Counted from the first letter of the stretch, positions 1 to 21,766 are shown. The stretch: DNA of 24,000 nucleotides from Olsenella uli (GCF_901212675.1 NZ_CAAKOQ010000041.1:30375-54374); one strand, 5' to 3'. The notes: generated from the letters alone by a model not told the origin. A program made the numbers and translations.

Positions 1-1108
1 GCGCCTCGTCGTGGATGTCGAGCACCATGTTCTCGGCGACCGTGAACGGCAGCACCATGCCCCAGCGATGACGGTCGGACGGGATGGTGGCCACCGAGTG
101 GTCGAGCACGTTCTTGATCGAGGTGTTCTGGACCTCGGCGCCCTTGATGGAGATGGTGCCCGACTCGGCCTTGGCCAGGCCGTCGATGGCATAGGCGAGC
201 TCGGTCTGGCCATTGCCGTCGATGCCCGCGATGCCCACGATCTCGCCCGAGCGGACCTCGAGGTCAAGCCCCTTGACCTGCTCGATGCCGCGCTCGTCCT
301 TGACGTGCAGGCCATGCACGGCCAGCACCACGTCGCCGGGGGTGGCGGGCTTCTTGTCGACCTTGAAGCTCACGTGGCGTCCCACCATCTTGGAGGCGAG
401 CTCCTCCTCGCTCGAACTCGCCACGTCGACCGTGCCCATGTAGACGCCGCGGCGGATGATCGTGCACTCGTCGGCCGAGCTCATGATCTCCTTGAGCTTG
501 TGGGTGATGATGATGATCGTCTTGCCCTTGTTCACGAGGTCATGCATGATCTCGATGAGCTTGTCGATCTCCTGCGGGGTGAGCACGGCCGTGGGCTCGT
601 CAAGGATCAGCGTGTCGGCGCCGCGGTAGAGCACCTTGAGGATCTCGACGCGCTGCTGCATGCCCACGGAGATGTCCTCGATCTTGGCGTCGAGGTCGAT
701 GTCGAAGCCGTACTCGTCCGCGATCTGGGCCACCTTGGCGCGCGCCGCCTTGGGATCGAGGATGCCGGGGGCGCCGCACACCTCGTCGCCCAGCACGATG
801 TTCTCGGTGACGGTGAAGTTCTCCACAAGCATGAAGTGCTGGTGCACCATGCCGATGCCGTGCGTGATGGCATCGGTCGGGCTCTGGATGTCCACCTTCT
901 CGCCGTTGAGGAAGATGTCACCCTCGTCCGCCTGGTACAGGCCGTAGAGCACGTTCATGAGCGTGCTCTTGCCCGCGCCGTTCTCGCCCAGGATGGCATG
1001 GATGGACTGCTTCCTCACGTCGAGGTTGACGCCGTCGAGCGCCCGAAACGTGCCGAACACCTTGGTGATGCCGTGCATCTGGACCGCGTAGTCGGAACTG
1101 ACCTCCAT
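1..1108 (-). CDS. ABC transporter ATP-binding protein, tandem-NBD nucleoside/simple-sugar type (N-terminal ~369 codons; gene runs off the window start)
   Basis: Minus-strand frame starting at ATG 1108 is missing from the ORF track because it has no stop inside the window. It reads MEVSSDYAVQMHGITKVFGTFRALDGVNLDVRKQSIHAILGENGAGKSTLMNVLYGLYQADEGDIFLNGEKV... with Walker A GENGAGKST. It is still open at position 2 (...MVLPFTVAENMVLDIHDEA). SD GGGAGG lies ~6 nt upstream. It sits directly downstream of a BMP-family binding-protein gene. Confidence 0.85.
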   Translation of the reverse strand, partial: MEVSSDYAVQMHGITKVFGTFRALDGVNLDVRKQSIHAILGENGAGKSTLMNVLYGLYQADEGDIFLNGEKVDIQSPTDAITHGIGMVHQHFMLVENFTVTENIVLGDEVCGAPGILDPKAARAKVAQIADEYGFDIDLDAKIEDISVGMQQRVEILKVLYRGADTLILDEPTAVLTPQEIDKLIEIMHDLVNKGKTIIIITHKLKEIMSSADECTIIRRGVYMGTVDVASSSEEELASKMVGRHVSFKVDKKPATPGDVVLAVHGLHVKDERGIEQVKGLDLEVRSGEIVGIAGIDGNGQTELAYAIDGLAKAESGTISIKGAEVQNTSIKNVLDHSVATIPSDRHRWGMVLPFTVAENMVLDIHDEA

Positions 1109-1198: not shown

Positions 1199-2275
1199 CT
1201 ACGCCTTGAAGGAAGCCAGGTCGCTCTCGTTGGCGGGCGGCTTGATCTCGCCGCTCTTGATCTTGTCCTCAAGGGCGATGGCGTCGTTGTAGATCTCGTC
1301 GCCCATGATGCTGTGCTCCTCGGGAATGCCCACGCAGTCCTCCGTGGCGCCCAGGCTCACGTTGGTGCCACCCTCGATCTTGCCGCTCTGGAGCTGCGTG
1401 GAGACGTCGATGACGGCGGTGTTGACGCGCTTGAGCGCGGAGGTGATCACGTTTTCGGGAGCGAGGTAGGCCTGGTCGCGGTCGACGCCGATGGCGTACT
1501 TGCCGGCGTCCTTGGCGGCCTGGATGACGCCCGTGCCCACGCCGCCGGCCGCGTGGAAGACCACGTCGCAGCCGTCGGAGAACATCTTCTGGGCGATGGA
1601 CTTGCCCTTGGCGGAGTCGGAGAAGGACTCGGCGTACTGGCTCTGGACCTCGACGTTCAGGCCCTTCTCGGAGTTGGCGTACTGGACGCCGGCCTTGTAG
1701 CCAAACTCGAACTGGTCGATGACGTCAGACGAGATACCGCCCACGAAGCCGACCTTGCCCGTCTTGCTGAAGCGGGCCGCGATGTAGCCCACCATGAAGG
1801 ACGGCTCCTGCGCGCGGAACGTCACGCCGGTGATGTTGGCGGCGCCGGTGGGGTTGGCATTGTCGATGATGGCGAACTGGACGTCCGGGTTGGACTTGGC
1901 GCAGTTGCCCACGGCCTCGGCCATGGCAAAGCCGATGCCCCAGATCAGGTTGGAGCCGTCGTCGACCGCCTTGTCGAGGTTGGTGGCGTAGTCGCTCTCC
2001 TGCTTGGACTCCATGTAGCTGACGTCCCAGCCGTTGTCGGACTGGAGCTTCTGCAGACCCTCCCACGCGCTCTGGTTGAACGACTGATCGTTGACGCCGC
2101 CGGTGTCGGTGACCATCTCGATCTTGTAGCTGGCGCCGGACGCGGAGCCCGAGGTGGCAGCGGCGTCGCCGCCCGAGTTGCCGCCGCCACCGCAGCCCAC
2201 GAGGCCGAGGCCGGCAACCGCTGCCAGGGCACCCATGCCCTTGATGAAGCCACGACGGGAGATGTTGCTCTTCAT
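1199..2275 (-). CDS. BMP-family (PnrA/Med-like) ABC transporter substrate-binding lipoprotein, probable nucleoside-binding
   Basis: ORF 1199..2314 trimmed to the internal ATG at 2275, preceded by AAGGAAG. N-terminus MKSNISRRGFIKGMGALAAVAGLGLVGC has a twin-Arg-like signal plus lipobox LVGC. The body (VTDTGGVNDQSFNQSAWEG...GFVGG...AIGVDRDQ) is typical of the BMP/basic membrane lipoprotein family. Confidence 0.88.
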   Translation of the reverse strand: MKSNISRRGFIKGMGALAAVAGLGLVGCGGGGNSGGDAAATSGSASGASYKIEMVTDTGGVNDQSFNQSAWEGLQKLQSDNGWDVSYMESKQESDYATNLDKAVDDGSNLIWGIGFAMAEAVGNCAKSNPDVQFAIIDNANPTGAANITGVTFRAQEPSFMVGYIAARFSKTGKVGFVGGISSDVIDQFEFGYKAGVQYANSEKGLNVEVQSQYAESFSDSAKGKSIAQKMFSDGCDVVFHAAGGVGTGVIQAAKDAGKYAIGVDRDQAYLAPENVITSALKRVNTAVIDVSTQLQSGKIEGGTNVSLGATEDCVGIPEEHSIMGDEIYNDAIALEDKIKSGEIKPPANESDLASFKA

Positions 2276-2383
2276 TGGTACGCTTCCTTTCCCTTGCGAC
2301 CCGGCCTTCCGCACCGGGCCACCCTCGAGGCGGACTTCCGCCCCCTTATCAAACGGGCCGCACGGCCCGCCTCGTGCACATGC

Positions 2384-3103
2384 CTATGATGACACCGCGA
2401 CCTCCAGGGCGACCTCCATCATTTGGGTGAACGACGTCTGTCGGTCCTCGGCCGGTAGTCCCTCGCCCGAGAGCGGCAGGTCCGACACGGTGAGCAGGCA
2501 CAGCGCGTGCTTGCGCGCGCGGATGGCGTTGAGGTAGAGCGCCACGGACTCCATCTCCACCGCGAGCACGCCCATCGACGCCCAGCGCTCGTTGACCGTC
2601 TCGTCGTCGTTGTAGAAGACGTCCGAGGACAGCACGTTGCCAACCTTGTAGTCGTAGCCCAGGCGCTCGGCGGACTCGACGGCCTTGCGCAGGAGGCCAA
2701 AGTCGGCGATGGGGGCCAGCGTGCCCGGCATGCGGAACTGCGCGGCAAAGTTGGAGTCGGTGCAGGCGCCCATACCGATCACAAGGTCGCGCAGCCGGAC
2801 GTCGGGCGCGAGGCCGCCGGCCGTGCCGATGCGAATGATGTTGTTCACGTCGTAGAAGTTGAAGAGCTCGTAGGAGTAGATGCCGATGGACGGCACTCCC
2901 ATGCCCGAGCCCATGACCGAGACGGGCTTGCCCTTGTAGGTGCCCGTGAAGCCCAGCATGTTGCGCACCTGGTTGAAGCAGGTGACGTCCTCGAGGTAGG
3001 TGTCAGCCACGTACTTGGCGCGCAGCGGGTCGCCGGGCATGAGGACGGTCTTGGCGATCTGGCCCTCGGTCGCCTGGTTGTGGGGAGTGGGAGTCGCTGC
3101 CAT
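2384..3103 (-). CDS. deoD: Purine nucleoside phosphorylase, DeoD (hexameric) type
   Basis: 239 aa. Contains ...[21 protein letters not shown]...[30 protein letters not shown]...IRIGTAGG...VEMESVALY, typical of DeoD-type PNP. SD GGAGG upstream; the start lies 3 nt after the deoB stop. Confidence 0.93.
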
Positions 3104-3106
3104 GGC

Positions 3107-4318
<1,212 letters not shown>

Positions 4319-4699
4319 GTGGAGCCGCTCCTTCCTGGGGCGTACGTGTCCGCCAGTGCCGGTTGGCCCGGGTTCCGCAACGCTGCAGCGTAGGGTGGGT
4401 GGGATTGCGGCACTGGCTTGCTGGTCGCCTTGCGTTCTTAAGAAAAGTTTAGCCGACTGTCCCGATATTTCCATTCTGAAGACACTATTGCATCCAAGAC
4501 GTAACGAACAGGCAGCATATCGTTGGCCCCCGCGAGCGGTGGCGAGAATCCCGCGAATGGTATGCGGCCTTTCAACTTCTGTTGATAATGCGAGCGCGCG
4601 CCATGCACGGCGTGCCGGCGTGCGTTTGGGAAGGTGCCCGGCAGGCGCGTGCTCCGCATCTGGGCGCACGGCCGATGCGCCCGGCCCGCCCCGCGGCCC

Positions 4700-4788
4700 C
4701 GCACGCGCATGCGAAGCGCACCTTAACCTCGCGCTCAACATCATCCAATGTCGTTCCCGCAAGCTCGCACGCGCATGCGAAGCGCACC
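4700..4788. repeat. Perfect 23-bp direct repeat, two copies (4700-4722 and 4766-4788)
   Basis: CGCACGCGCATGCGAAGCGCACC occurs twice, 66 bp start-to-start. Each copy contains the near-palindrome GCGCATGCG. A degenerate third GCATGC-containing copy lies near 4815-4830. Confidence 0.8.
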
Positions 4789-4862
4789 CATCCGAAACAC
4801 GCCACCCATCATGCGAGCACACGCATGCCCGCAGCCGTCACAACCACGGATCACTCCTCATT

Positions 4863-4939
4863 GAACGTAGCGTTTTCGGACACGTGACGTCACAAAACCC
4901 CAGTTGGCAGAAAGCCGCTTGTCCAAAAACGCTACAGTC
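4863..4939. repeat. 77-bp palindromic intergenic repeat, copy 1 (MITE/REP-like)
   Basis: GAACGTAGCGTTTTCGGACA...CAAAACCCCAGTTGG...TGTCCAAAAACGCTACAGTC. The ~20-nt terminal arms are inverted complements (15 of 16 core pairs). Confidence 0.8.
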
Positions 4940-4975
4940 ACACATTCATGGGATTATGGACCTCACCCTTCTGCC

Positions 4976-5052
4976 GAACGTAGCTTTTTCGGACAAGCAG
5001 ACCCGCAAAACTCCAGTTGGTTGAAGACCTCTTGTCCGAAACTGCTACAGTC
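4976..5052. repeat. 77-bp palindromic intergenic repeat, copy 2
   Basis: GAACGTAGCTTTTTCGGACA...CAAAACTCCAGTTGG...TGTCCGAAACTGCTACAGTC. Same length and architecture as copy 1. Confidence 0.8.
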
Positions 5053-5080
5053 GCGCATCCTCGGGGGCCCGGCCCCTACC

Positions 5081-5157
5081 GAGCGTAGCGTTTTTGGACA
5101 GGCGGCCTTGCAAAACCGCAGTTGGCGGAGAGCGCCTTGTCCGAAAACGCTACGTTC
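5081..5157. repeat. 77-bp palindromic intergenic repeat, copy 3
   Basis: GAGCGTAGCGTTTTTGGACA...CAAAACCGCAGTTGG...TGTCCGAAAACGCTACGTTC. The arms pair along their whole length, and the stem extends inward (AGGCG/CGCCT). Confidence 0.8.
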
Positions 5158-5231
5158 GGGGTGTTGGGGTCTGTGATGGGTGTCGGCTGCTCGGCGGCAA
5201 TCAGCCGAAACACGCACGCAACCGAATCGCG

Positions 5232-5285
5232 CACGGGCGAGGGGCTTATCACGGGCGAGGGGCTAATCACGGGCGAGGGGTTTAT
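5232..5285. repeat. 18-bp tandem repeat x3 (iteron-like)
   Basis: CACGGGCGAGGGGCTTAT / CACGGGCGAGGGGCTAAT / CACGGGCGAGGGGTTTAT, head to tail. The array ends 75 bp upstream of the candidate -35 box. Confidence 0.85.
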
Positions 5286-5359
5286 CGAAGCGGACGCGGG
5301 CACAACCGCATGCCTTCACTGCCGTTTACCTGCGAATTCACCCTTTCTCCAGAGAGTGC

Positions 5360-5388
5360 TTTACGCCGCCCCACTCCCCTCGTATAAT
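5360..5388 (+). promoter_or_regulatory. Candidate sigma-70-type promoter for psuK-psuG-yjjI-yjjW
   Basis: TTTACG (5360-5365), 17-nt spacer, perfect TATAAT (5383-5388), followed by an AT-rich discriminator. It is the only consensus -10 in the region facing the plus-strand genes, and it implies a ~225-nt leader. Confidence 0.5.
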
Positions 5389-5619
5389 GCCTGTAGTAAA
5401 GAAATGATTATGGTTCTAAATCTTTGTTGATGTCGTTTCGACGCGGAGGCTGGGGCGCGGGGCCGTCAGGCACGAAGACCAGACCCCGACCGCGAAAGCC
5501 GGGCATCGGGCCAGCCACAATGACCGGTCACCCAACCCAGCACGCACACCAGACGACAGACCCCGACAAGGGACCAGGACAGACCCGCGGGCCCAGGGCA
5601 CAGCCGGAACGGAGGCAGG

Positions 5620-6759
5620 ATGGTCACCGAGCGCGAACGCCAAATCCTCGAGTGGATTCGCGAGGACCCCTCCATCAGCCAGAAGGAGATCGCGGAGCGG
5701 GCGAACATCTCGCGCTCCTCGGTGGCGGTCCACATCTCCAACCTCATCCGGAAGGGGGCCATCCTGGGCCGCCAGTACGTCCTGTCCGAGTCGCCCTACG
5801 CGGTGGTGGTGGGCGGTGCCAACATGGACATCGCCGGCAAGCCCTCCGAGCCGCTCGTGGCCCACGACTCCAACCCGGGCACGGTGCGTCTCTCCGCAGG
5901 CGGCGCCGGGCGAAACATCGCCCACAACATGGCCCTGCTCGGGTGCGACGTGAAGCTCATCTCGGCCTTTGGCGACGACGCACACGCCCGCGAGCTCATG
6001 GACGGCTGCCGGAACGCCGGCATCGACGCGCGCGGCTCGCTCGTGATCCCGGGTGCCACCACGTCCACCTACCTCTTCATCATGAACGAGGACGGCGACA
6101 TGGAGCTCGCCATCTCCGACATGGCCATCTACGACCAGCTGCTCCCCGCCCACCTCGAGCGCAAGCTCGACATCATCGAGAACGCGGCCCTCTGCGTGGT
6201 GGACACCAACATCCCCGCCGAGAGCCTGCGCTGGCTTGCCGACAACGTCTCCGTGCCGCTCTTCTGCGACCCGGTCTCCACCGTCAAGGCCACCAAGCTC
6301 GACGGCATCGTGGGAAAGCTCCACACCCTGAAGCCCAACCGCCTCGAGGCCGAGGTGCTCTCGGGCGTCCCCATCACCGACGAGGCGTCGCTCGGGCGAG
6401 CCGCCAAGGCCCTGCTCGACACGGGCCTTAAGCAGGTCTTCATCTCGCTCGACGCGCGCGGGCTCTACTGCGCCAACCACGAGCGCGCCGAGCTCCTCCC
6501 CATCATCAGGAGCCAGGTGACCAACGCCACCGGCGCGGGCGACTCCATGATGGCCGCCATCGCCTGGGCCTTCCTCGGCGGCGAGGACCTCGAGGGCCAG
6601 GGGCTCGCGGGGCTCGCCACCTCGTCGATCTGCGTAGAGTCGCCGGCGACCATCAACACCAACATCTGCGCCGACGCCGTCCGCAAGCGCATGGCGCAGG
6701 CAGATGCGGCGACCACGTTGCCCTCCCCCGCCACGCCCATGGCGGCCGCGGCCTCGTAG
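5620..6759 (+). CDS. psuK: Pseudouridine kinase family (PfkB) protein with N-terminal winged-HTH domain (PsuK/YeiI-like)
   Basis: 379 aa, SD GGAGG. N-terminus MVTERERQILEWIREDPSISQKEIAERANISRSSVAVHISNLIRKGAI is a wHTH. The PfkB kinase core follows (VVGGANMDI...GGAGRNIA...ATGAGDSMMAA). Sits immediately upstream of psuG. Confidence 0.85.
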   Translation: MVTERERQILEWIREDPSISQKEIAERANISRSSVAVHISNLIRKGAILGRQYVLSESPYAVVVGGANMDIAGKPSEPLVAHDSNPGTVRLSAGGAGRNIAHNMALLGCDVKLISAFGDDAHARELMDGCRNAGIDARGSLVIPGATTSTYLFIMNEDGDMELAISDMAIYDQLLPAHLERKLDIIENAALCVVDTNIPAESLRWLADNVSVPLFCDPVSTVKATKLDGIVGKLHTLKPNRLEAEVLSGVPITDEASLGRAAKALLDTGLKQVFISLDARGLYCANHERAELLPIIRSQVTNATGAGDSMMAAIAWAFLGGEDLEGQGLAGLATSSICVESPATINTNICADAVRKRMAQADAATTLPSPATPMAAAAS

Positions 6760-6873: not shown

Positions 6874-7803
6874 ATGAAGGAGCTCAACAAGTACCTCGAC
6901 ATCGCCCCCGAGGTCAAGGAGGCCCTCGACGCCGGCAAACCCGTCGTCGCCCTCGAGTCCACGATCATCTCGCACGGCATGCCCTACCCGCAGAACGTCG
7001 AGACGGCCCTCAAGGTCGAGCAGATCATCCGCGAGAACGGCGCCACGCCGGCCACTATCGCCGTCATCGGTGGGCGTCTGCGCGCGGGCCTCTCCAAGGA
7101 CGAGATCGACTACCTTGGCAAGAAGGGCCACGACGTCACCAAGGTGTCCCGTCGCGACCTCGCCGTGGTGTGCGCGCGCGGCATGGACGGCGCCACGACC
7201 GTGACCACCACGATGATCATCGCCCACATGGCCGGCATCGAGGTCTTCGCCACGGGCGGCATCGGCGGCGTGCACCGCGGTGCCGAGAAGACCATGGACA
7301 TCTCCGCCGACCTCGAGGAGCTCGCCAACACGCCGGTCATGGTCATCTGCGCCGGCGCCAAGTCCATCCTCGACCTGGGCCTCACCCTCGAGTACCTCGA
7401 GACCCACGGCGTGCCCGTGCTGGGCTACCAGACCTCCGAGCTGCCCGCGTTCTACACGCGCCACTCCGGCTTTGGCGTCGACTACGAGGTCGACTCGCCC
7501 GAGGACCTCGCCAAGATCTTCCACGCCAAGCGCGAGATGGGCCTGCGTGGCGGCGTGCTCGTGGGCAACCCCATCCCCGAGCAGTATTCGATGGACAAGG
7601 CCGTGATCGACAAGGCCATCGACGAGGCCATCGCCGAGGCCAACGAGAAGGGCATCCACGGCAAGGAGACCACGCCGTTCCTGCTTGCCAAGGTGGCCGA
7701 GATCACCGGCGGCGACTCGCTCGAGTCCAACATCGAGCTCGTCTTCAACAACGTGCGCCTGAGCGCCAAGACCGCCGTGGCCCTGCGCAACATCGAGGAC
7801 TAG
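6874..7803 (+). CDS. psuG: Pseudouridine-5'-phosphate glycosidase
   Basis: 309 aa, SD AAAGGA. Contains VALESTIISHGMPYPQN...TKVSRRD...GATTVTTTMIIAHMAGIEVFATGGIGGVHRG...DISADLEEL, characteristic of the PsuG/YeiN (IndA) family. Confidence 0.93.
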   Translation: MKELNKYLDIAPEVKEALDAGKPVVALESTIISHGMPYPQNVETALKVEQIIRENGATPATIAVIGGRLRAGLSKDEIDYLGKKGHDVTKVSRRDLAVVCARGMDGATTVTTTMIIAHMAGIEVFATGGIGGVHRGAEKTMDISADLEELANTPVMVICAGAKSILDLGLTLEYLETHGVPVLGYQTSELPAFYTRHSGFGVDYEVDSPEDLAKIFHAKREMGLRGGVLVGNPIPEQYSMDKAVIDKAIDEAIAEANEKGIHGKETTPFLLAKVAEITGGDSLESNIELVFNNVRLSAKTAVALRNIED

Positions 7804-7939
7804 CCGAGGGACGGCCGGCACCCGCCGCGCCGGTTGCGGCATCGTCATCGACCGTGCGGGCCTGGGGCGGCTCGACGCGGAGCTCAGGCACGAGCTTGAG
7901 TCGAACCTGCCGCATGGCACGAGAGAGAAGGAGTAGCCC

Positions 7940-9445
7940 ATGGCCACGCCCGAAGACGTGACGAGCATCGTCACCTCGAGGAAGCTCACCTACAAGCAGA
8001 AGAAGCTGCACCTGGCCCAGAGTGCCGAGAACAGCGTGAGTCCCATCAAGACCACCAAGCGCTTCGACTACTTCTTCGAGAACCACGCACTCGACGACAT
8101 GAGCGAGGGCAACGCGCCCTACCGGCCGCGCTACATCCTGCCCGACTACGAGCGCTTCGTCGAGAACGGCTCCAAGTTCCTCAAGCTCGATGCCCCCAAG
8201 GACCTCGACGACCTGCTCTGGGGCCTTGCGATGGTCTACGACAACGTGCCGTCGGTCACGAGCCGCCCGGTCTCGGTGGGTCAGCTCGACCGCATGATCG
8301 ACCCCTTCCTCGCGGGCGTCTCCGACGAGGAGGCAAAGGCCAAGCTCACGCGCTTCCTCACCTACATCGACCGCACGGTGGCCTCCGGCTACTGCCACGC
8401 CAACATCGGCCCGGAGGAGACCCGCGCCGGCAACCTGTTGCTCGAGGTCGAGGCCGAGGTCCAGAACGCCGTGCCCAACTTCACGATGAAGTACGAGGCG
8501 GGCGTGACCCCCGATGACTACGCACGCAAGGCCATCCGCTGCGCTATGAGGTGCGCCAACCCCGCGTTTGCCAACCACGCCATCCACAAGCACACCTACG
8601 AGGGCGACTACCAGGTCGTGAGCTGCTATAACGTGCTGCCCTACGGTGGCGGCGCCTATTGCCTCGACCGCCTGCTGCTGCCCGGCATGGCCAAGCTTGC
8701 GACGAGCGTCGACGACTTCATGGACAACGTCCTGCCCGAGGCGACGCTCGAGCTGTGCAACTACATCAACCAGCGCATCAGGTTCGAGGTCGAGGAGTCC
8801 GGGTTCTTCGACACGGATTGGCTCGTCACCGACGGCCTCGTGCACCGCGACCGCTTCGTGGCCATGTTCGGCCTTGCCGGCATGAGCGAGTGCGTGGCCA
8901 CCCTGCTGAACCTGCACAACGGGCGCGCCTACGGCACCGACCCCGAGGCCAACGCCCTGGCCGACCGCATCTGCGCGAAGGTCTACGACCTGGTCAACGG
9001 CTTTGACGCGGTGTACTCCGAGGCCGCGGTCGGGCGCTTCACCCTGCACGCGCAGGCCGGCTTCGGCGACCAGATGGGCGTCACACCGGGCGTGCGCATC
9101 AAGGTGGGCGACGAGCCCAAGGTCTTCTACGACCACATCCGCCAGGCCGCGAGCCTGCACAAGTACTTCAACGCCGGCGTCTCCGACATCTTCCCCGTCG
9201 AGCCCACGGCCGAGGGGAATCCCGACGCCATCCTCGACGTCATCAAGGCGGCGTTCGCCATCGGCGACAAGTACCTCTCGTTCTACTCGTCCGACTCCGA
9301 CCTGGTGCGCATCACGGGCTTCCTCGTGAAGCGCTCCGAGATCGAGAAGTACGCGCGCGGCGAGGTGGTGCTGGCCGACACGTCGCATGACGGCGAGGGC
9401 AACTGGCGGGCGAACGACCTCGGCGACCGGACGGTGCGCCTGTAG
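7940..9445 (+). CDS. yjjI: Glycyl-radical enzyme, YjjI family (DUF3029), function unknown
   Basis: 501 aa, SD AAGGAG 6 nt upstream, GC-rich third codon positions. EGNAPYRPRY block near the N-terminus. C-terminal glycyl-radical fingerprint DLVRITGFLV (Gly460 = codon 9317-9319), 41 residues from the end. Followed by a dedicated radical-SAM activase. Confidence 0.85.
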   Translation: MATPEDVTSIVTSRKLTYKQKKLHLAQSAENSVSPIKTTKRFDYFFENHALDDMSEGNAPYRPRYILPDYERFVENGSKFLKLDAPKDLDDLLWGLAMVYDNVPSVTSRPVSVGQLDRMIDPFLAGVSDEEAKAKLTRFLTYIDRTVASGYCHANIGPEETRAGNLLLEVEAEVQNAVPNFTMKYEAGVTPDDYARKAIRCAMRCANPAFANHAIHKHTYEGDYQVVSCYNVLPYGGGAYCLDRLLLPGMAKLATSVDDFMDNVLPEATLELCNYINQRIRFEVEESGFFDTDWLVTDGLVHRDRFVAMFGLAGMSECVATLLNLHNGRAYGTDPEANALADRICAKVYDLVNGFDAVYSEAAVGRFTLHAQAGFGDQMGVTPGVRIKVGDEPKVFYDHIRQAASLHKYFNAGVSDIFPVEPTAEGNPDAILDVIKAAFAIGDKYLSFYSSDSDLVRITGFLVKRSEIEKYARGEVVLADTSHDGEGNWRANDLGDRTVRL

Positions 9446-9459
9446 GTCGTCGTCAGAAG

Positions 9460-9537
9460 GGCGGGCAGGGCGTACTCCCAGCTCAGACAGCTCCGCTTGG
9501 TGCGGAGAACTCGCTGGGCCCGTACGCCCCGCCCGCC
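9460..9537 (+). promoter_or_regulatory. Large composite hairpin between yjjI and yjjW (candidate attenuator or mRNA 3'-stabiliser)
   Basis: Outer stem GGCGGGCAGGGCGTAC (9460-9475) pairs with GTACGCCCCGCCCGCC (9522-9537), 16 bp with 1 mismatch. Inner stems are CCCAGC/GCTGGG and CTCCGC-ttggt-GCGGAG. A T-rich run TTCTCTTTTTTCTTGTT (9560-9576) lies 22 nt further downstream. Confidence 0.55.
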
Positions 9538-9589
9538 TGACGCGGTTACGAGGCTGGGCTTCTCTTTTTTCTTGTTGGGAGTTCCTTGG

Positions 9590-10429
9590 ATGTCTGCGCA
9601 TGTGCCGGTGAACAATGTCATTCCGTTCTCCTTGGTGGACGGGCCGGGTGCGCGGTGCTCCATCTTCTTGCAGGGGTGCAACATCCGCTGCGCCTACTGC
9701 CATAACCCCGAGACGCAGCGGCTTTGCGTAGCTTGTGGCGAGTGCGTCCGGGCGTGTCCGGCGCACGCGCTCGCCATCGACGCCGGGGCGGTGACCTGGG
9801 ACGCGGACGCCTGCTGCGCGTGCGACACGTGCATCGGGACGTGCCGCCACCGCTCGAGCCCGCGCATCCGCCACCTCAGCGCCGAGGAACTGTATGCCGA
9901 GGTACGCGGCTTCATGCCCTTCATCCGCGGCGTCACCACTTCGGGCGGCGAGTGCATGCTCTACCCGGAGTTCCTGCGCGAGCTGTTTGCCCTTTGCAAG
10001 GGTGTGGGCCTGGGTTGCCTCATCGACTCGAACGGCACCATCGACTTCGCCCAGCACGAGGAGCTGCTCTCGCTTGCCGACGGCGTGATGCTTGACGTGA
10101 AGGCCTGGGACGACGACTGGTTCGTGCGGCTCACCGGCACCGACGGGGTGATGGTGCGCAAGAACCTCGCCCAGCTCAGCGAGGCCGGCAAGCTTGCCGA
10201 GGCGCGCGTCATCGTGACGGATGGCTGGAACGACCCGGAGGACGCCGTGCGCGGCATCGCGGCCACCGTGGGCAGTCGCGTGGGCTCCACGCGACTGCGT
10301 CTCATGCGCTTCAGGCACTTTGGCGTGCGCGGCGAGATGGCGAACGCCCCCTCGCCCACGGACGAGCGCATGGCTTCCATCGAGCGCGAGGCCCGAGGCC
10401 TTGGCTTTGGCGAGGTCGTCGTCTCGTAG
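9590..10429 (+). CDS. yjjW: Glycyl-radical enzyme activating protein, YjjW family (radical SAM)
   Basis: ORF 9497..10429 trimmed to ATG 9590; the upstream 31 codons lie inside the hairpin and T-tract. MSAHVPVNNVIPFSLVDGPGARCSIFLQGCNIRCAYCHNPE carries the CX3CX2C motif. Two ferredoxin-like clusters follow: CVACGECVRACP and CCACDTCIGTC. 279 aa. Confidence 0.88.
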   Translation: MSAHVPVNNVIPFSLVDGPGARCSIFLQGCNIRCAYCHNPETQRLCVACGECVRACPAHALAIDAGAVTWDADACCACDTCIGTCRHRSSPRIRHLSAEELYAEVRGFMPFIRGVTTSGGECMLYPEFLRELFALCKGVGLGCLIDSNGTIDFAQHEELLSLADGVMLDVKAWDDDWFVRLTGTDGVMVRKNLAQLSEAGKLAEARVIVTDGWNDPEDAVRGIAATVGSRVGSTRLRLMRFRHFGVRGEMANAPSPTDERMASIEREARGLGFGEVVVS

Positions 10430-13890: not shown

Positions 13891-14694
13891 CTACCCGGCC
13901 AGTACGTTTGCCGCCACCACGGCCGCGAGCAGCACCACCATGACGGCGCAGCCCACGGCGTCGCGACGCGCAAGGCGCAGCGGATGCAGCTTGGTGCGTC
14001 CCTGCTCGCCATGGTAGCAGCGGGCGTCCATCGCGGCCGCCAGCGTCTCCGCGTGGCGGAACACGCTCGCGAACATCGGCACCGCCACCGACGAGAGCGC
14101 CCGCACGCCGCGCAGCGGGCTGCCCGAGAGCCGCGCGCCGCGCGAGAGCTGCGCCGCATACGTCGCGCGCATCTCCCCCGCGAGCTGGGGCATGAACCTG
14201 AGTGCGATGCCCAGCATCATGCCAAGCTCGTGCGCCGGCACGCCCACGCGCGCAAGCGGGGCAAGCAGGTGCTCGAAGGCAGTCGTGAGGTCGAGCGCGG
14301 TGGTCGTGAGGGTTACGAGCGACATGCCCGCCATCATCGCCGTGAGGCGCACGACCGTGGAGAGGCACGAGCGCAGGCTGCCCTCGCTTATCTGGAAGAC
14401 GCCCCACGACCACAGCGTCTCGCCGGCCTGGTCGGTGAACAGCCTGAGCACGCACACGAGCACAACGATGGGAAGCATGGGCGCAAGCGATCGCAGCGCA
14501 CGGCCGGCCGGTATGCCCGCCACGCGGTACAGCGCGACGACAAAGAGCGCGAGCACGGCAAGCGCCACCGGTGCCTGCCCCACGAGCGACACGATGAGGA
14601 AGCAGAGTCCAAGCGCGAGCTTGGCGCGCGGGTCCATCCGATGCAGTGGGCTGTCGCCAGGCCAGTAGCTGCCAAAGGAGAAGGCGTCCGTCAT
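13891..14694 (-). CDS. ecfT: Energy-coupling-factor transporter transmembrane component EcfT
   Basis: 267 aa and hydrophobic. MDPRAKL near the N-terminus and an ARG-type coupling helix region (AAQLSRGARL) are typical of the EcfT/CbiQ family. The start overlaps the ATPase stop by 4 nt. Confidence 0.85.
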   Translation of the reverse strand: MTDAFSFGSYWPGDSPLHRMDPRAKLALGLCFLIVSLVGQAPVALAVLALFVVALYRVAGIPAGRALRSLAPMLPIVVLVCVLRLFTDQAGETLWSWGVFQISEGSLRSCLSTVVRLTAMMAGMSLVTLTTTALDLTTAFEHLLAPLARVGVPAHELGMMLGIALRFMPQLAGEMRATYAAQLSRGARLSGSPLRGVRALSSVAVPMFASVFRHAETLAAAMDARCYHGEQGRTKLHPLRLARRDAVGCAVMVVLLAAVVAANVLAG

Positions 14695-16538
14695 GCAACC
14701 TCCCCCAGCATCGGAGCGAGCGCCCTGGCAAGCGAGGCCACCGAATAGAGGCGCCCCTCGGCAAGGGGCACGCCCCGGGCGCGCAGGGCCTCCGCCATTC
14801 GCTGGGCACTTGGCACACCAAGACCAATGCGCTGCAGGTCAGAACCTTTAAGGAAGACCTCATTGGGCGTTCCCTCGAGCGCGACGGAGCCCTCGTTCAT
14901 GATGACGAGGCGCGAGCAGAGGCTCGCAAGGTCGTCCATGTCGTGCGACACCATCACCACGGTGAGGCCCTCCTCGTGCAGCCGCGCGATGAGCGAGAGG
15001 AACGAGCGCCTCGACGCCGGATCGAGGCCGGCCGCCGGCTCGTCGAGCACGAGCACCTCGGGCTCCATCGCGAGCACGCCGGCAAACGCGACCCGGCGCT
15101 GCTGGCCGCCCGAGAGGTCGAACGGACTCTTCTCGCGCACAATGGCCGGGTCGAGCCCAACCTGGCGAAGCGAGCGCTCGGCGCGCCGGGCCACCTCCGC
15201 CTCGTCGCAGCCGAGGTTCCGCGGGCCAAACGCGACGTCGTCGAAGACGGTCTGCGCAAAGAGCTGGCGCTCGGGGTACTGGAAGACCACGCCGACACGC
15301 GCGACCACGTCCGCCGAGGCGCCCTTGCGAGCAAGGTCCTCGCCAAACGCGCACACCGTACCCCGCGTGGGATGCGCGAGACCGTTCATCTGCTGCACGA
15401 GCGTCGACTTGCCCGACCCCGTGTGCCCCGCGATGCCGAGGAACTCGCCGCGGCGCACCTCGAGGCTCACGTCGCTCAGCGCCCAGACGGCGTCCGGGTC
15501 GTTGCCCCAGGCTGCCCTGCCCCGCCGCGAGAGGCGGCCGTGCAGGAGGCGCCCGTGCTCCTTGGGAGGCTTGTAGCTGAACCAGACGTGGTCGAAGCTG
15601 ATGAGCGCGGAGGATGGGTCAGCTGGGCCAGCCGTGGAACCTGCAGACTCCCCGCCAGCGGCGATATCATGCCCAGCAGCGACGATGCCACTCCGGGCAG
15701 CCCTCGTCGCGAGCTGCTCCACGAGCTCGTCCTCGCGCACGCGGGGCTCCACGCCGCGCACGCCCTCCTCGCGCAGCGCAAGCGCGAGACGACATGCCGG
15801 CGGCACCTCGAGCCCCAGCTCGTCGAGCTCGTCTGCGCGGGTCAGGACCTCCTGCGGGGTCCCCTCCATGCGAATGCGGCCAGCGTCGAGCACGACGACG
15901 TAGTCGGCCTCGGCCGCCTCGGCCATGATGTGGGTCACCATAACGACGGTCATGCCCCGCCCGTTGAGCTCCCGGACGACCTTCATGAGGCCGTCGCGCC
16001 CGCGCGGGTCGAGCATGGCCGACGCCTCGTCCAGCACGAGCACCTCGGGGTCCATCGCAAGCGCCCCCGCAATGGCGACGCGCTGCTTCTGGCCACCGGA
16101 GAGCGCGTTGGTCTCGTGCCGCTCGAAACCCGTGAGCCCCACCTGCACGAGCGAGCGCCGCACGCGGGCGCCCAGTTCCTCCGTCGGCACGCCCAGGTTC
16201 TCGGGGCCAAACGCCACGTCGTCCTCGACGAGCGTGGCCACGAGCTGGTCGTCCGGGTTCTGGAACACCATGCCCACGCGCGAGCGCACGTCGTAGACGT
16301 ACTCGGGATCCGACGTGTCGAGGCCGTCGACCGCAACGCTGCCCGAGTCGGGGACCAGAAGCGCGTCGAGGTGCTTCGCGAGCGTGGACTTGCCCGAGCC
16401 GTTACCGCCAAGCACGCACGTGAGGCTGCCGCGAGGAACGGAGAGGCTCACGCCGTCGAGCGCGAGCCTCTGCCGGTCGTACGTGAACGTGACGTCCCCG
16501 CAGGAGATGATGGTCTTGGGACCTGGCGCCACTCGCAT
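14691..16538 (-). CDS. ecfA: Fused ECF transporter ATPase EcfA-EcfA' (two NBDs in one 615-aa polypeptide)
   Basis: ORF 14691..17084 trimmed to ATG 16538, which overlaps the ribU stop (TAATG). Two full ABC cassettes are present: GGNGSGKST...LSGGQKQRVAIAGALA...LVLDE, then GHTGSGKST...LSGGQQRRVAFAGVLA...LVLDE. Confidence 0.88.
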   Translation of the reverse strand: MRVAPGPKTIISCGDVTFTYDRQRLALDGVSLSVPRGSLTCVLGGNGSGKSTLAKHLDALLVPDSGSVAVDGLDTSDPEYVYDVRSRVGMVFQNPDDQLVATLVEDDVAFGPENLGVPTEELGARVRRSLVQVGLTGFERHETNALSGGQKQRVAIAGALAMDPEVLVLDEASAMLDPRGRDGLMKVVRELNGRGMTVVMVTHIMAEAAEADYVVVLDAGRIRMEGTPQEVLTRADELDELGLEVPPACRLALALREEGVRGVEPRVREDELVEQLATRAARSGIVAAGHDIAAGGESAGSTAGPADPSSALISFDHVWFSYKPPKEHGRLLHGRLSRRGRAAWGNDPDAVWALSDVSLEVRRGEFLGIAGHTGSGKSTLVQQMNGLAHPTRGTVCAFGEDLARKGASADVVARVGVVFQYPERQLFAQTVFDDVAFGPRNLGCDEAEVARRAERSLRQVGLDPAIVREKSPFDLSGGQQRRVAFAGVLAMEPEVLVLDEPAAGLDPASRRSFLSLIARLHEEGLTVVMVSHDMDDLASLCSRLVIMNEGSVALEGTPNEVFLKGSDLQRIGLGVPSAQRMAEALRARGVPLAEGRLYSVASLARALAPMLGEVA

Positions 16539-17137
16539 TACTCCTTGCCCTGGACCTGGTCCTTCTCCGGGGTGATGGAGTTGGAGATCGCCTTGTAGAC
16601 GCCCAGCGTGATGAGCGAGTTGAGGAACGTCTTGAGGAGGTTGAACGGAATGAGCGCCGGGACCACGAGCGGCAGCACCGCGTCGGGCGTGCCGTACCAG
16701 AAGGCCACGCCGATGGTGAGGTTGGCGACGACGGAGGCAACCGTGGCCACAACCATCGAGAGGACGAGGCCGCCGATGGCCGCCTTGTACGTGCGGCTCC
16801 GCGCGTAGATGATGGCCGCCGGCAGGATGTAGCCGAGCGTGGCGACGATGTTCATGAGCGAGCCGACCCACCCGCCGGTCAGAAGGCCGTGGAGCACGGT
16901 GATGAGCACGCCCACCGCGACGCCGGGGCCCGCGCCAAAGGCGAAGCCCGCCACCATGGCCGGGACGAGTGACGGGTCGTACGTGAGGAACGCCGCAGCC
17001 GGGAAGATCGGGAGTGCCACGAACGAGAAGATGGCACCGACGGCAACGAGGAGCGCCATGGTCACGAGTTGCCTCGTGCTCCACCTGTTCGTGTTCTCGA
17101 CGTGGATGTGTGCGGACTGCGCAGACTGTTCAGACAT
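16538..17137 (-). CDS. ribU: ECF transporter S component, riboflavin-specific (RibU) by riboswitch context
   Basis: Hydrophobic 199-aa protein of the ECF S-component type. Start set at ATG 17137 (MSEQSAQ...) because the upstream ATG at 17158 lies inside the conserved 3' end of the FMN riboswitch (GGAUGGAAGAG). Confidence 0.8.
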   Translation of the reverse strand: MSEQSAQSAHIHVENTNRWSTRQLVTMALLVAVGAIFSFVALPIFPAAAFLTYDPSLVPAMVAGFAFGAGPGVAVGVLITVLHGLLTGGWVGSLMNIVATLGYILPAAIIYARSRTYKAAIGGLVLSMVVATVASVVANLTIGVAFWYGTPDAVLPLVVPALIPFNLLKTFLNSLITLGVYKAISNSITPEKDQVQGKE

Positions 17138-17147
17138 GAGATCACCT

Positions 17148-17336
17148 GCCTCTTCCATCCGGACTTTGACCGTTGGTCCCGGACTCGAACCGGGTCAACC
17201 CTGCTGCGCGCCAGCGCAGACGGGCTCGCGGACTCGCCGGTTCCCGCACCACGTCCCTTTGACGTGGGCCCGCGGGCCCTGTGCCCGCGTCCGACCTACC
17301 GCCAGTGAGGAATTTCACCTCGCCCTGAAACAGCAA
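17148..17336 (-). promoter_or_regulatory. FMN riboswitch (RFN element)
   Basis: The minus strand reads ...CAGGGCGAGGUGAAAUUCCUCACUGGCGGUAGG...AGUCCGCGAGCCCG...GGGUUGACCCGGUUCGAGUCCGGGACCAACGGUCAAAGUCCGGAUGGAAGAGG. This matches the RFN consensus blocks GGUGAAAUUCC, GGCGGUA, CCGCGAGCC, GGUUGA..GGU and ACGGU.AAAGUCCGGAUG..AGA, with a long GC-rich variable stem. No terminator follows, so SD sequestration is likely. Confidence 0.9.
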
Positions 17337-17341
17337 CGCGG

Positions 17342-17370
17342 ATGATAGCACTCCGCGCGGGCACGCACAA
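17342..17370 (-). promoter_or_regulatory. Candidate promoter of the FMN-riboswitch / ribU operon
   Basis: The minus strand reads TTGTGC, 17-nt spacer, TATCAT. This places a TSS a few nt before the first riboswitch helix. Confidence 0.4.
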
Positions 17371-17407
17371 AGAGAAAGGGAGCCGAGGCCACGTGGCCCC
17401 GGCTCCC
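17369..17407 (-). terminator. Rho-independent terminator of the Fe-ADH gene
   Basis: The minus strand reads GGGAGCCGGGGCCACGTGGCCTCGGCTCCC followed by TTTCTCTTT, about 60 nt after the adh stop. Confidence 0.75.
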
Positions 17408-17466
17408 TGCCGAGTCTTGCATGTCGGGCGGCACGGCCGCCCGCGGTGCGCGTTGGCGCGGCTGGC

Positions 17467-18681
17467 CTAGAAGTCAGGCTGCTCGTCCTTGTAGACGCAC
17501 TCGAGCAGCTTCTCCATCTCCTCCTGCGTCGGCTGGCGCGGGTTCTCGGGGGTGCAGGCGTCGAGCAGCGCGTTCTTGGCGACCTCGGACTTCTTGGCCT
17601 CGAACTCGTCGTAGTCGATGATCGAGGCGTCGGACTTGACGCCGCCCTCGCCGTAGTTCTTGATGCCCTGCGGGATGTTGAGCTGGTCGTTCATGTGTCT
17701 GATCTCCTGAATCAGGTTGTCGATCAGCTGGTCGTCCGTGGTGCCCGGAAGGTGCAGAACCTCCTTGGCGACGTAGGCGTAGCGCTCGTGGGCACGGGCG
17801 TCCTTGGAGTTGAACTGGATGACCTTGCCAAGGTACATGGCGTTGGCGCAGCCGTGGATGATGTGGCCACCGGAGAACGCGGCACCCGTCTTGTGCGCCA
17901 TGGAGTGCACGATGCCAAGCAGGCCAGAGGAGAAGGCGATGCCGGCGATGCACTGGGCCTCGTGCATGTGCTGGCGAGCCTCGTGGTCACCGGCGTAGCT
18001 CTTGGGCAGCCACTCGTGAATCTCGCGGATGCCGTGCAGGGCGTTGGCGTCGGTGAACATGGAGGCGTACGTGGAGACGTAGGCCTCGATGCAGTGGGTC
18101 AGCGCGTCCATGCCGGTGTGCGCGCAGAGCTTCTGCGGCATGGAGTAGGTGAGCTCGGGGTCGACGATGGCGACGTCCGGGGTGATGTTGAAGTCGGCCA
18201 ACGGGTACTTGATGCCCTTCTGGTAGTCCGTGATGACGGAGAACGCGGTGACCTCGGTGGCCGTGCCGGACGTCGAGGAGATGGCGCAGAACTGGGCCTT
18301 CTTGCGCAGCTCCGGGAAGCTGAACGGCTGGATGATGTTGTCGAAGGACTCGTCGGGGTACTCGTAGAAGACCCACATGGCCTTGGCGGCGTCAATCGGC
18401 GAGCCACCGCCGATGGCGATGATCCAGTCGGGCTGGAACTCCTGCATGGCCTTGGCGCCCTTCATGACCGTCTCGATCGACGGGTCGGACTCGACGCCCT
18501 CGAACAGGCTGACCTCGAAGCCAGCGTCCTCGAGGTCCTTCTGGACGTCCTGCAGGAAGCCGCCGCGGCGCATGCTGTGACCGCCGGAGACGATGATGGC
18601 CTTCTTGCCCTTGAGGTTCTTGACCTCGTGACGAGCACCCTCGCCAAAGTACAGGTCACGCGGGTTGGTGAAACGTCCCAT
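17467..18681 (-). CDS. Iron-containing (group III) alcohol dehydrogenase
   Basis: 404 aa, SD GGAGGAA. Contains GGGSPIDAAKAMW, TTSGTATEVT-like SSTSGTATEVTAF, and the His-rich metal site HTGMDALTHCIEAY...GIVHSMAHKTG...HG. Resembles the ADH domain of AdhE. Confidence 0.88.
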   Translation of the reverse strand: MGRFTNPRDLYFGEGARHEVKNLKGKKAIIVSGGHSMRRGGFLQDVQKDLEDAGFEVSLFEGVESDPSIETVMKGAKAMQEFQPDWIIAIGGGSPIDAAKAMWVFYEYPDESFDNIIQPFSFPELRKKAQFCAISSTSGTATEVTAFSVITDYQKGIKYPLADFNITPDVAIVDPELTYSMPQKLCAHTGMDALTHCIEAYVSTYASMFTDANALHGIREIHEWLPKSYAGDHEARQHMHEAQCIAGIAFSSGLLGIVHSMAHKTGAAFSGGHIIHGCANAMYLGKVIQFNSKDARAHERYAYVAKEVLHLPGTTDDQLIDNLIQEIRHMNDQLNIPQGIKNYGEGGVKSDASIIDYDEFEAKKSEVAKNALLDACTPENPRQPTQEEMEKLLECVYKDEQPDF

Positions 18682-19092
18682 ACGAGTTCCTCCACATCAT
18701 TTGCGCCGGCAGCTAGGCCGACGAACTACCGGCGGCATATACCGTCAGCTCCCCGTTTGGCAGCCCCCTGTGGACGTGCCAGAAGCGCGCCGGCTCACAT
18801 TGCCCTGTCGCCTTGCTTCGCTCTAAATTGTATCCAGCGTGTTACAGACGCAGACGACCCAATCCGCAAGCGTGGAAAACCGACCGCCTACAGAATTTCA
18901 TGAGCTCTTGATTTACACGAGCGGTTGATCTTGCTCTGGTGGACATCTTGTCTCTCTAAGACATATGTCGCGAGACGGGCCGGCATCCTGGGTACGTACG
19001 CCAGCCGACGTGTGGCCTTACGCATGGGGGCGCCGAGCGAGCAGTCCCGCGCGACGCCCCCCGTAGTCCCCTCTTCCGGTTCCGCGACGGCC

Positions 19093-20250: not shown

Positions 20251-20261
20251 GCGTGCCTCCG

Positions 20262-20299
20262 GGAAGAAAGGGGCGCCCCGCCTGCACGGCGAGGCGCCC
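20262..20299 (-). terminator. Terminator-like hairpin downstream of gldA, abutting the aminotransferase SD
   Basis: The minus-strand RNA forms a 12-bp stem, GGGCGCCUCGCC-gugca-GGCGGGGCGCCC (one G.U pair), followed by CUUUCUUCCC and then directly GGAGGcacgcAUG. Confidence 0.55.
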
Positions 20300-20351
20300 G
20301 CATACGTGAATGGGCGTAATTGTACGACAGCGCGCGGACCTGGCCGAGCCG

Positions 20352-21461: not shown

Positions 21462-21766
21462 AAAGACTCTCCCTTTGTCGTGGTCAAACCCCGGGCCAAG
21501 GCAGGCCCACCCCCTGTGGCCCCATCCAAGGAGCGAGGGTACCCATATGAGAAAGGTGACCGCCATCGAACGGTCGTCTTCTGCGAACGGTAGGTTTTTG
21601 CGTGCGAGCGGTACTTCTTGGAAAAGTGCTTGACAATGGGGCGTCGGAGCGGCGCGTATTGGGATGTCGCGACCGGTCCGCAACCCTGGAGCCCCTCTCG
21701 GCCCGCTCGTGGCCCTAGGCCGTCTCCAGGCCCGCCCGTAGTCCTGAGCCGTCCCCCGGGCCACCC

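Follow-up and report, generated by a model that had tools for sequence, protein, structure and literature searches.

We examined a 24,000-nucleotide stretch of the Olsenella uli genome (GCF_901212675.1 NZ_CAAKOQ010000041.1:30375-54374; the whole stretch is referred to as the window), in which positions 7940 to 10429 hold the two-gene yjjI-yjjW locus. Our analysis suggests that YjjI is an oxygen-sensitive radical enzyme and YjjW its activating partner, with the neighboring genes, in this genome as well as in many further anaerobes, pointing to nucleoside breakdown, probably of the ribose part. The pair comprises the following features:

7940..9445, + strand: yjjI, 501-amino acid (aa) YjjI-family glycyl-radical enzyme (PF11230, TIGR04040)
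8624..8626, + strand: codon of Cys229, the putative thiyl-radical cysteine, in an S-C-Y-N loop
9317..9319, + strand: codon of Gly460, the putative glycyl-radical site, in R-I-T-G-F
9590..10429, + strand: yjjW, 279-aa radical S-adenosylmethionine (SAM) activase (TIGR04041)
9677..9700, + strand: radical-SAM CX3CX2C motif (C30, C34, C37; CNIRCAYC), read from the sequence, with a PF04055 match
9725..9844, + strand: two ferredoxin-like cysteine clusters of YjjW, read from the sequence, with Fer4 and Fer4_9 matches

The yjjI gene starts with ATG, with a Shine-Dalgarno sequence (GAAGGAG) 7 nt 5' of the start, and is separated from yjjW by a spacer of 144 nt (9446-9589). Although the listed yjjW open reading frame (ORF) begins with a TTG at 9497, homology supports a start at the ATG at 9590, for a product of 279 aa and an end at 10429. 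The window has a G+C content of 67%, and third-position G+C content (GC3) is ~0.95 in real genes, including the yjjI and yjjW frames, indicating that these are the true coding frames and that an 857-aa antisense ORF is a shadow. The initial annotation had described a 501-aa ORF with an RITGF fingerprint, followed by a 279-aa radical-SAM protein with CNIRCAYC and two ferredoxin-like cysteine clusters, and we recover all of these elements in the sequence, with R457-I-T-G460-F present and Gly460 located 41 residues before the C-terminus.

Both proteins match their family models far above chance, with YjjI aligning to PF11230 (formerly DUF3029, "YjjI-like") over profile positions 1-485/485 (662 bits, cut-off 23, E = 5e-199) and scoring 588.8 bits against TIGR04040 (curated cut-off 498.3), and YjjW scoring 354.3 bits against TIGR04041 (cut-off 250.2). 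PF11230 is the sole Pfam match of the window YjjI at E <= 1e-3, and the NRDD model is unmatched. These searches bear out the earlier assignment to the YjjI/YjjW (DUF3029) family, and the length of 501 aa agrees with the small architecture (~500 aa, against ~800 aa for other glycyl-radical enzymes [GREs]) described there. The family is compact, with 422 representatives (50% clustering, E <= 1e-3, among 1.84 billion proteins), among which we found no domain fusions.

The Escherichia coli proteins YjjI (b4380) and YjjW (b4379) are full-length orthologues, 37% and 40% identical to the window proteins, respectively, with length, motifs, pair order and anaerobic control in common. The two pairs differ in their setting, since E. 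coli yjjI and yjjW overlap and lie near deoCABD, whereas the window genes are 144 nt apart, come after psuK-psuG and have deoB-deoD and a BMP importer facing them. In E. coli, the yjjI operon is directly activated by FNR (PMC3688515) and CRP chromatin immunoprecipitation peaks are found in the yjjI/deoC intergenic region (PMC4287617), while yjjI of Yersinia intermedia is upregulated 4.3-fold without oxygen (PMC3792023). A biclustering study from 2011 found E. coli yjjI to be coexpressed with nar/nir genes and to have an FNR motif, and guessed at a role in "nitrogen metabolism" (PMC3228777). NCBIfam types both TIGR04040 and TIGR04041 as hypoth_equivalog, RefSeq names E. coli b4380 "DUF3029 domain-containing protein YjjI," and no YjjI/YjjW substrate was found in the openly accessible literature that was searched. 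Furthermore, no YjjI-family structure was found in the PDB, where phmmer and hmmsearch with an 86-sequence profile returned chance matches only and where none was present among the best 50 Foldseek matches. The placeholder names and the failure to find a substrate in that literature or a structure in the PDB agree with the earlier remark that the family has no biochemically defined reaction; the window pair belongs to a known orphan family and is not a new kind of system.

With respect to residue conservation, we compared 86 relatives with 51-78% identity in a first alignment and, in a second one, 30 sequences whose identity falls as low as 32%, the latter including E. coli, Proteus, Vibrio, Microbulbifer, Haliovirga and a Chloroflexota genome. 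In neither the close nor the distant set does Gly460 or Cys229 vary. Across the 30 sequences, the invariant core consists of E56, R64, Y65, D117, D144, H153, N180, S228-C229-(Y)-N231, R244, H370, Q372, R386, R457, G460 and R497, so that the window protein carries both family motifs, the R-[IV]-T-G-[YF] glycine motif and the invariant S-C-Y-N cysteine. Cys229 is the only invariant cysteine, and from this and from its place in the structural model we infer that it is the catalytic one. The segment that had been put forward earlier as a source of candidate cysteines does hold Cys229, but its C241 is unconserved across YjjI relatives and is ruled out as the catalytic residue. C205 is ruled out as a second catalytic cysteine, being Val or Ser in some Bacillaceae and not invariant family-wide. 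Three of the invariant arginines, R64, R244 and R386, lie outside the Gly motif, which makes an anionic substrate plausible. In Aeromonas caviae KAM479 (locus L087, 7827-9359), we observe a yjjI orthologue with an in-frame stop inside an otherwise invariant G-x-L-D motif, and this reflects a pseudogene or else an error in the sequence.

The activase has its radical-SAM cysteines in a C30-x3-C34-x2-C37 arrangement and its ferredoxin-like clusters at C46/C49/C52/C56 and C75(C76)/C78/C81/C85. After its own family model, the next best models are those of ferredoxin-insert GRE activases (TIGR02494, 142 bits; HypD activase, 144 bits; both under their cut-offs), whereas NrdG models match poorly (42-72 bits). 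YjjW shares the class of the ferredoxin-insert activases of eliminase and decarboxylase GREs, while NrdG is without its two extra clusters.

An AlphaFold2 model of YjjI built on the 86-sequence alignment is confident (predicted local distance difference test 90.9, predicted template modeling score 0.91). In it, strands 224-227 and 231-234 flank C229, and strands 455-458 and 461-464 flank G460. Two hairpin tips occupied by Cys229 and Gly460 are the arrangement expected of a glycyl-radical enzyme, and the Gly-loop/Cys-loop barrel asked of a structural model at the outset is thus predicted. A Foldseek search of this model against the PDB gave 60 matches at E <= 1e-3, with the best 50 of the 60 all being GREs. 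The best 30 are class III ribonucleotide reductases (RNRs; 9dau, 8p2s, 1h78, 4coj) with E values of 8e-16 to 3e-12 and TMq of 0.58-0.75, followed by a second tier of dehydratase and lyase GREs from E = 5e-12 (8iof, 9rcp, 1r8w, 5fay). Profile-profile alignment (hhalign) of YjjI with NrdD is weak, with a probability of 49-53% and E values of 2e-5 to 2e-4, and agrees with the fold result: YjjI C229 falls on the thiyl cysteine C384 of E. coli NrdD and G460 on G681. The NrdD profile used here is shallow (7 sequences, including one 36% relative from locus L034) because the NrdD homologue search gave only sequences at least 86% identical.

The same alignment places NrdD C175 in a 2-residue gap after YjjI Y65, M382 on V227 and N405 on A239. 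C175 of E. coli NrdD (C79 in T4) is the cysteine of the reductive half-reaction and is paired with a finger-loop Met (PMC4493059). The absence of a second catalytic cysteine in YjjI is supported by the fact that no other cysteine is invariant. YjjI also lacks the ATP cone and the C-terminal CxxC...CxxC Zn ribbon that precedes the Gly loop in NrdD, a region gapped in hhalign. Class III RNR NrdD, the best fold match, resembles YjjI in its barrel, which holds a Gly loop as well as a Cys finger loop, and also in its ribosyl chemistry if the inference from genomic context is right, but it is ~200 residues longer and has the ATP cone, the Zn ribbon, C175, Met382 and Asn405. Without the reductive cysteine, its Met partner, the Zn ribbon and the ATP cone, and with an activase that is not NrdG-like, YjjI does not qualify as a class III RNR; its predicted structure resembles a bare RNR/GRE catalytic core, here with a PflC-type activase.

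The 1,2-eliminase GREs (glycerol and propanediol dehydratases, CutC, HypD, IslA) are the second-tier fold match and combine a single catalytic cysteine with redox-neutral chemistry, as proposed for YjjI. Their Cys loop reads G-C-[VI]-E, with the catalytic Glu at Cys+2. They are ~800 aa long, against 501 aa and an S-C-Y-N loop in YjjI, and there are no microcompartment genes nearby around yjjI. PflB/PflA belong to the same superfamily, and a few YjjI homologues show weak PF02901 matches, but YjjI lacks the Cys-Cys pair and is far smaller, and YjjW has extra clusters compared to PflA.

In the window, the pair is surrounded by genes of nucleoside uptake and catabolism:

6874..7803, + strand: psuG, pseudouridine-5'-phosphate glycosidase family (PF04227, 456.9 bits, full profile length)
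5620..6759, + strand: psuK-like winged helix-turn-helix PfkB kinase, YeiI/YeiC-like (PfkB 169 bits plus N-terminal HTH_24)
5360..5388, + strand: promoter-like site TTTACG-17-TATAAT upstream of psuK, by consensus match only (10/12 positions)
3107..4318, - strand: deoB, phosphopentomutase, 403 aa from ATG 4318 (PRK05362, 502 bits, cut-off 256)
2384..3103, - strand: deoD, purine-nucleoside phosphorylase (NF004489, 342 bits, cut-off 230; TIGR00107, 299.5 bits, cut-off 232)
1199..2314, - strand: PnrA/BMP nucleoside-binding lipoprotein of an ATP-binding cassette (ABC) importer (PF02608, 293.5 bits; twin-arginine signal, lipobox)
<1..1108, - strand: ABC importer ATPase with Walker and ABC motifs, extending beyond the left end of the window

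The deoB-deoD-BMP-ATPase genes (-) diverge from the psuK-psuG-yjjI-yjjW string (+) across a 1.3-kb noncoding gap. Gaps within the string are 114-144 nt, with psuG and yjjI on one strand and 136 nt apart (7804-7939). Scanning for terminators between psuG, yjjI and yjjW gave nothing over shuffle expectation, and no FNR/CRP box was seen by eye in the psuG-yjjI spacer at 7804-7939. The psuK-like kinase scores 275.6 bits against PRK09954 and 216.6 bits against PRK09850 (cut-off 540), both under the cut-offs, and has an extra helix-turn-helix as in YeiI. Two promoter-like sites were found, against 0.5 expected in shuffles; the deoB homology starts at residue 176 of a longer ORF; and the ABC ATPase falls into one cluster with the ATPases that belong to BMP-type transporters beside yjjI in 56 loci. 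No deoC was found within the window, Rfam gave no RNA element in or beside the yjjI-yjjW locus, and yjjW is followed downstream by an unrelated MurE-like ligase.

The noncoding gap between the divergent deoB and psuK-like genes (4320-5619) contains three repeat units of ~90 nt (4863-4952, 4976-5065, 5081-5170), which are 71-74% identical and each of which has a 20-25 nt inverted repeat (GTAGCGTTTTCGGACA / TGTCCGAAAACGCTAC) at its borders. A tandem repeat of 3x18 nt (5232-5286) and a repeat of 2x33 nt (4690-4722, 4756-4788) are also present. These repeats may represent an element like a repetitive extragenic palindrome or a miniature inverted-repeat transposable element, or they may be regulator binding sites. 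Farther along the window, a flavin mononucleotide (FMN) riboswitch (RF00050; 17143-17336, - strand; 82.6 bits, gathering threshold 66.2) lies directly 5' of a gene at 14691-17084 (-), whose product has two ABC ATPase domains and is probably a riboflavin-regulated transporter. A hybrid-cluster protein (Prismane, PF03063, 508 bits; 22353-23951, - strand), a marker of anaerobic life, is encoded 12 kb from yjjI and is not considered linked to it. Several long ORFs with strong GC3 (17446-18903, 18925-20319, 20310-21593, 21618-22079) have no Pfam match at E <= 0.01, and a further one (22080-22979) has none at E <= 0.001; for some of the unmatched ORFs in 17446-22979, the opposite-strand ORF may be the true gene.

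To place this arrangement in a comparative context, we scanned 185,579 species genomes, which yielded 589 confirmed relatives, and used the best 80 loci of the 589. Neighboring ORFs were clustered all-against-all, recurrent clusters were annotated with Pfam and NCBIfam, and the loci were dereplicated greedily at 80% YjjI identity into 43 groups (single-linkage clustering over-merged). We observe that 32 of the 43 groups (74%) have at least one gene of nucleoside uptake or catabolism within 10 kb of yjjI, a figure that is biased toward Firmicutes/Atopobiaceae because similarity to the query decided which 80 loci were kept. The individual partners within 10 kb of yjjI are as follows:

YjjW: 42/43 groups
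PnrA/BMP binding protein (nucleoside ABC importer): 26/43 groups
DeoD/Udp-family phosphorylase: 22/43 groups
Crp/Fnr-family regulator: 17/43 groups
DeoB: 13/43 groups
DeoC: 10/43 groups
Cdd: 10/43 groups
PsuK: 10/43 groups
PsuG: 8/43 groups
Transketolase: 5/43 groups
Adenosine deaminase: 3/43 groups

A DeoD/Udp phosphorylase is thus found near yjjI in ~50% of the groups, against the ~2% that we would expect by our own estimate, which assumes 1-3 copies, a 2-5 Mb genome and a 20-kb window and has no computed control. Several loci nest yjjI in an operon, with gaps of -47 to 148 nt (L081, L073, L046, L061). Their gene orders are DeoD-BMP-[28 nt]-YjjI-[overlap]-YjjW-[148 nt]-ATPase-permease-permease-Cdd-DeoB-YczE-Add-Crp in L081, Udp-Cdd-BMP-YjjI-YjjW-ATPase in L073, and YjjI-YjjW-Cdd-BMP-ABC followed by Udp or PsuK-PsuG in L046 and L061; in L073 and L081, yjjI-yjjW is flanked by two importer genes, that of the binding protein on one side and that of the ATPase on the other. 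In Clostridia loci, the phosphorylase is usually a uridine phosphorylase (TIGR01718 over cut-off), which gives these operons a pyrimidine-ribonucleoside flavor, while the Atopobiaceae relatives of the window have DeoD, DeoB and PsuK/PsuG, often with DeoC directly after yjjW. In E. coli K-12, yjjW-yjjI is divergent from deoCABD. The nucleoside link of yjjI-yjjW is therefore broad and operonic and not specific to pseudouridine. The earlier view that the locus gives a hint to the substrate class is supported by this, but the hint is not "unusually explicit," since the same context recurs in ~3/4 of the sampled lineages. The emphasis on pseudouridine is also too narrow, real as the nucleoside context is: PsuK (10/43) and PsuG (8/43) are less frequent partners than the importer (26/43) and DeoD/Udp (22/43), so that the context points to nucleoside/ribose catabolism in general.

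In the Clostridia loci L027-L030 and L031-L051, further neighbors recur to which no role was assigned: a membrane protein resembling YczE/YitT and a GntR regulator (9 groups each), a "putative esterase" of PF00756 (7 groups), and an energy-coupling factor-type transporter with a LacI regulator. One locus from a Neobacillus metagenome-assembled genome (L034) has a bona fide nrdD (15890-17779; 34.5% identity to E. coli NrdD by BLASTP) with an NrdG-like activase ~4 kb downstream of yjjI-yjjW, so that two radical systems coexist in one genome and one neighborhood.

On the basis of sequence, predicted structure and context, we tentatively propose that yjjI-yjjW is an anaerobic radical system that would act on a ribosyl moiety in nucleoside catabolism, with a redox-neutral outcome favored. 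The activation of E. coli yjjI by FNR, the rise of Yersinia yjjI without oxygen and the Crp/Fnr-family regulator beside yjjI in 17/43 groups are in line with anaerobic control of such a system. As a radical-SAM enzyme, YjjW would carry two auxiliary ferredoxin-type clusters besides its one SAM cluster; it would cleave SAM reductively and take a hydrogen from Gly460 of YjjI, leaving a stable glycyl radical. In a barrel like that of class III RNR, this radical would oxidize Cys229 at the opposing finger-loop tip to a thiyl radical; family membership, the invariant residues and the confident structural model argue for this barrel and radical part of the mechanism. The substrate would most likely be ribosyl, either ribose-1-phosphate, ribose-5-phosphate or a (pyrimidine) ribonucleoside itself. 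The routes of the neighboring enzymes (Cdd to Udp, Add to DeoD, PsuK to PsuG, and DeoB) converge on ribose-1-phosphate/ribose-5-phosphate plus free base, and thiyl radicals abstract sugar C-H beside oxygen, both of which favor the ribosyl moiety as the target. The Cys229 thiyl may then abstract a sugar C-H, after which a vicinal leaving group would be lost, as in the first RNR half-reaction. As net outcome, a redox-neutral elimination, dehydration or lyase reaction would be favored over NrdD-type reduction, given one invariant cysteine, the lack of the reducing Cys/Met pair of NrdD and the lack of a conserved reductant gene nearby (no formate transporter, pyruvate formate-lyase [PFL] or thioredoxin is conserved near yjjI in the best-80 locus set); this last step is the weakest inference of the scheme.

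A number of observations weigh against this proposal. On the chemical side, instability is expected of a 2-deoxy-3-keto sugar product, and the surroundings of yjjI showed no conserved enzyme that would process it further; in addition, the absence of a second cysteine rests on the weak hhalign alignment (49-53%). As to context, nucleoside genes are missing within 10 kb of yjjI in 11 of the 43 groups, none of the Bacteroidales loci shows a clear nucleoside link, and yjjIW pairs are isolated in six distant genomes (Haliovirga, a Chloroflexota genome, Vibrio, Proteus, Aeromonas and Microbulbifer). The nucleoside association is lineage-restricted, being absent in several Proteobacteria, Bacteroidales, Fusobacteriota and Chloroflexota. 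Proteus yjjIW adjoins smp-serB-radA as in E. coli, without deo, which indicates that the E. coli yjjI-deo adjacency may be partly accidental or historical synteny. We have downgraded the E. coli deoCABD adjacency as strong evidence, with no deo genes nearby in Proteus, Vibrio, Aeromonas and Microbulbifer. Finally, a polar-amino-acid-type ABC transporter lies directly upstream of yjjI in four loci from three phyla (L062, L070, L073, L078), which does not fit the nucleoside reading. This transporter consists of an SBP_bac_3-like binding protein, a permease and an ATPase, and its hosts are Alistipes, Treponema and two Lachnospiraceae.

A rival view is that the context reflects co-regulation or gene-order history and that the substrate is unrelated to nucleosides, for example an amino-acid-like or other small polar compound, or that YjjI has an anaerobic nitrogen or nitric oxide role, as put forward from E. 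coli coexpression. The isolated pairs in six distant genomes and in Bacteroidales, the amino-acid-type transporter directly upstream in L062, L070, L073 and L078, and the biclustering of E. coli yjjI with nar/nir and an FNR motif (PMC3228777) are all in line with this, as are the ~100 columns that are invariant between E. coli and window YjjI despite their differing contexts. However, in the absence of a common function there is little to account for the importer nesting (L073, L081) or for the tight same-strand packing with Cdd, Udp and PsuKG, and DeoD/Udp is far more frequent than expected (~50%, against ~2% by our own estimate); we therefore consider this view rather unlikely. A narrower role in the pseudouridine branch, with YjjI acting on pseudouridine, pseudouridine-5'-phosphate or released uracil, was the reading of the initial annotation and draws on the one-strand psuK-psuG-yjjI-yjjW string of the window with no convincing terminator, on PsuK/PsuG beside yjjIW in Atopobiaceae and in unrelated Clostridia (L047, L054, L055, L061, L063, L077), and on the Clostridia partners Cdd, uridine phosphorylase and PsuK/PsuG, which all release uracil. 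Nevertheless, PsuK and PsuG reach only 10 and 8 of the 43 groups, the partners in many loci are exclusively of the purine type (DeoD, Add) or missing altogether, and E. coli psuKG (yeiCN) is located away from yjjI. PsuK and PsuG, moreover, already finish pseudouridine cleavage hydrolytically, and uracil, which has only vinylic C-H bonds, is a poor target for a thiyl radical, making such a restricted role improbable.

The remaining alternatives take the similarity to RNRs more literally. The main rival of our proposal is a formate-dependent, RNR-like 2'-reductase that would convert ribose-5-phosphate to 2-deoxyribose-5-phosphate, or a ribonucleoside to a deoxyribonucleoside, after which DeoC would split the product to acetaldehyde and glyceraldehyde-3-phosphate in an electron-consuming fermentation independent of the pentose phosphate pathway. 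In favor of this reading, its product would be a known metabolite that is stable, class III RNRs lead the solved folds in similarity, and formate, the reductant of NrdD1 (PMC12662201), is plentiful in FNR-induced anaerobic metabolism. DeoC is found in 10 of the 43 groups, also in loci of ribo-only substrates such as pseudouridine, and is directly adjacent in several different arrangements, divergent in E. coli, convergent in Atopobiaceae (L005-L018, L026), and also in L074, L059 and L047; this adjacency is nevertheless not specific, DeoC being normal in nucleoside loci for deoxynucleosides. Furthermore, YjjI has no counterpart of NrdD C175 and its Met, so that formate would have to replace the missing cysteine, C205 being the only other well-conserved one and not invariant (Val/Ser in some Bacillaceae), and formate transporter, PFL and thioredoxin are not conserved near yjjI. 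On balance, we regard a 2'-reductase as unlikely. That YjjI is instead a stripped-down class III RNR making deoxynucleoside triphosphates for DNA synthesis is highly improbable: Foldseek places NrdD structures first and many YjjI homologues have weak precomputed PF13597 (NRDD) matches, but the window protein itself matches only PF11230 at E <= 1e-3, the reductive cysteine, finger-loop Met, Zn ribbon and ATP cone are missing, YjjW is of the ferredoxin-insert type and not NrdG-like, and true nrdD-nrdG coexist with yjjIW in E. coli and in Neobacillus (L034).

YjjI/YjjW is among the few glycyl-radical enzyme families without an assigned reaction, is part of the E. coli K-12 "y-ome" and is found in many gut anaerobes. 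To the existing knowledge of this family, our analysis adds a broad operonic nucleoside link, Cys229 as the probable catalytic residue, a predicted fold nearest to the class III RNR core without its reductive apparatus, and the lineage restriction of the nucleoside association. The comparative context reduces the substrate search to about a dozen cheap, commercial nucleosides and pentose phosphates, and it points to Clostridia or Atopobiaceae with a nested operon as suitable hosts. A bolder and doubtful idea is that the target of an RNR-like YjjI is a free ribosyl metabolite instead of a nucleoside triphosphate, with the enzyme serving either as a formate-driven 2'-reductase feeding DeoC or as a ribose-phosphate dehydratase/lyase; if true, this would constitute a previously unrecognized anaerobic route of pentose/nucleoside fermentation, and the catalytic core of ribonucleotide reductase would have in YjjI a living "minimal" relative. 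Should the ribosyl substrate prove false, the YjjI family would still mark an unassigned anaerobic reaction that is common in the gut; should it prove true, RNR-type chemistry would be extended to catabolism, which would bear on the evolution of the RNR fold.

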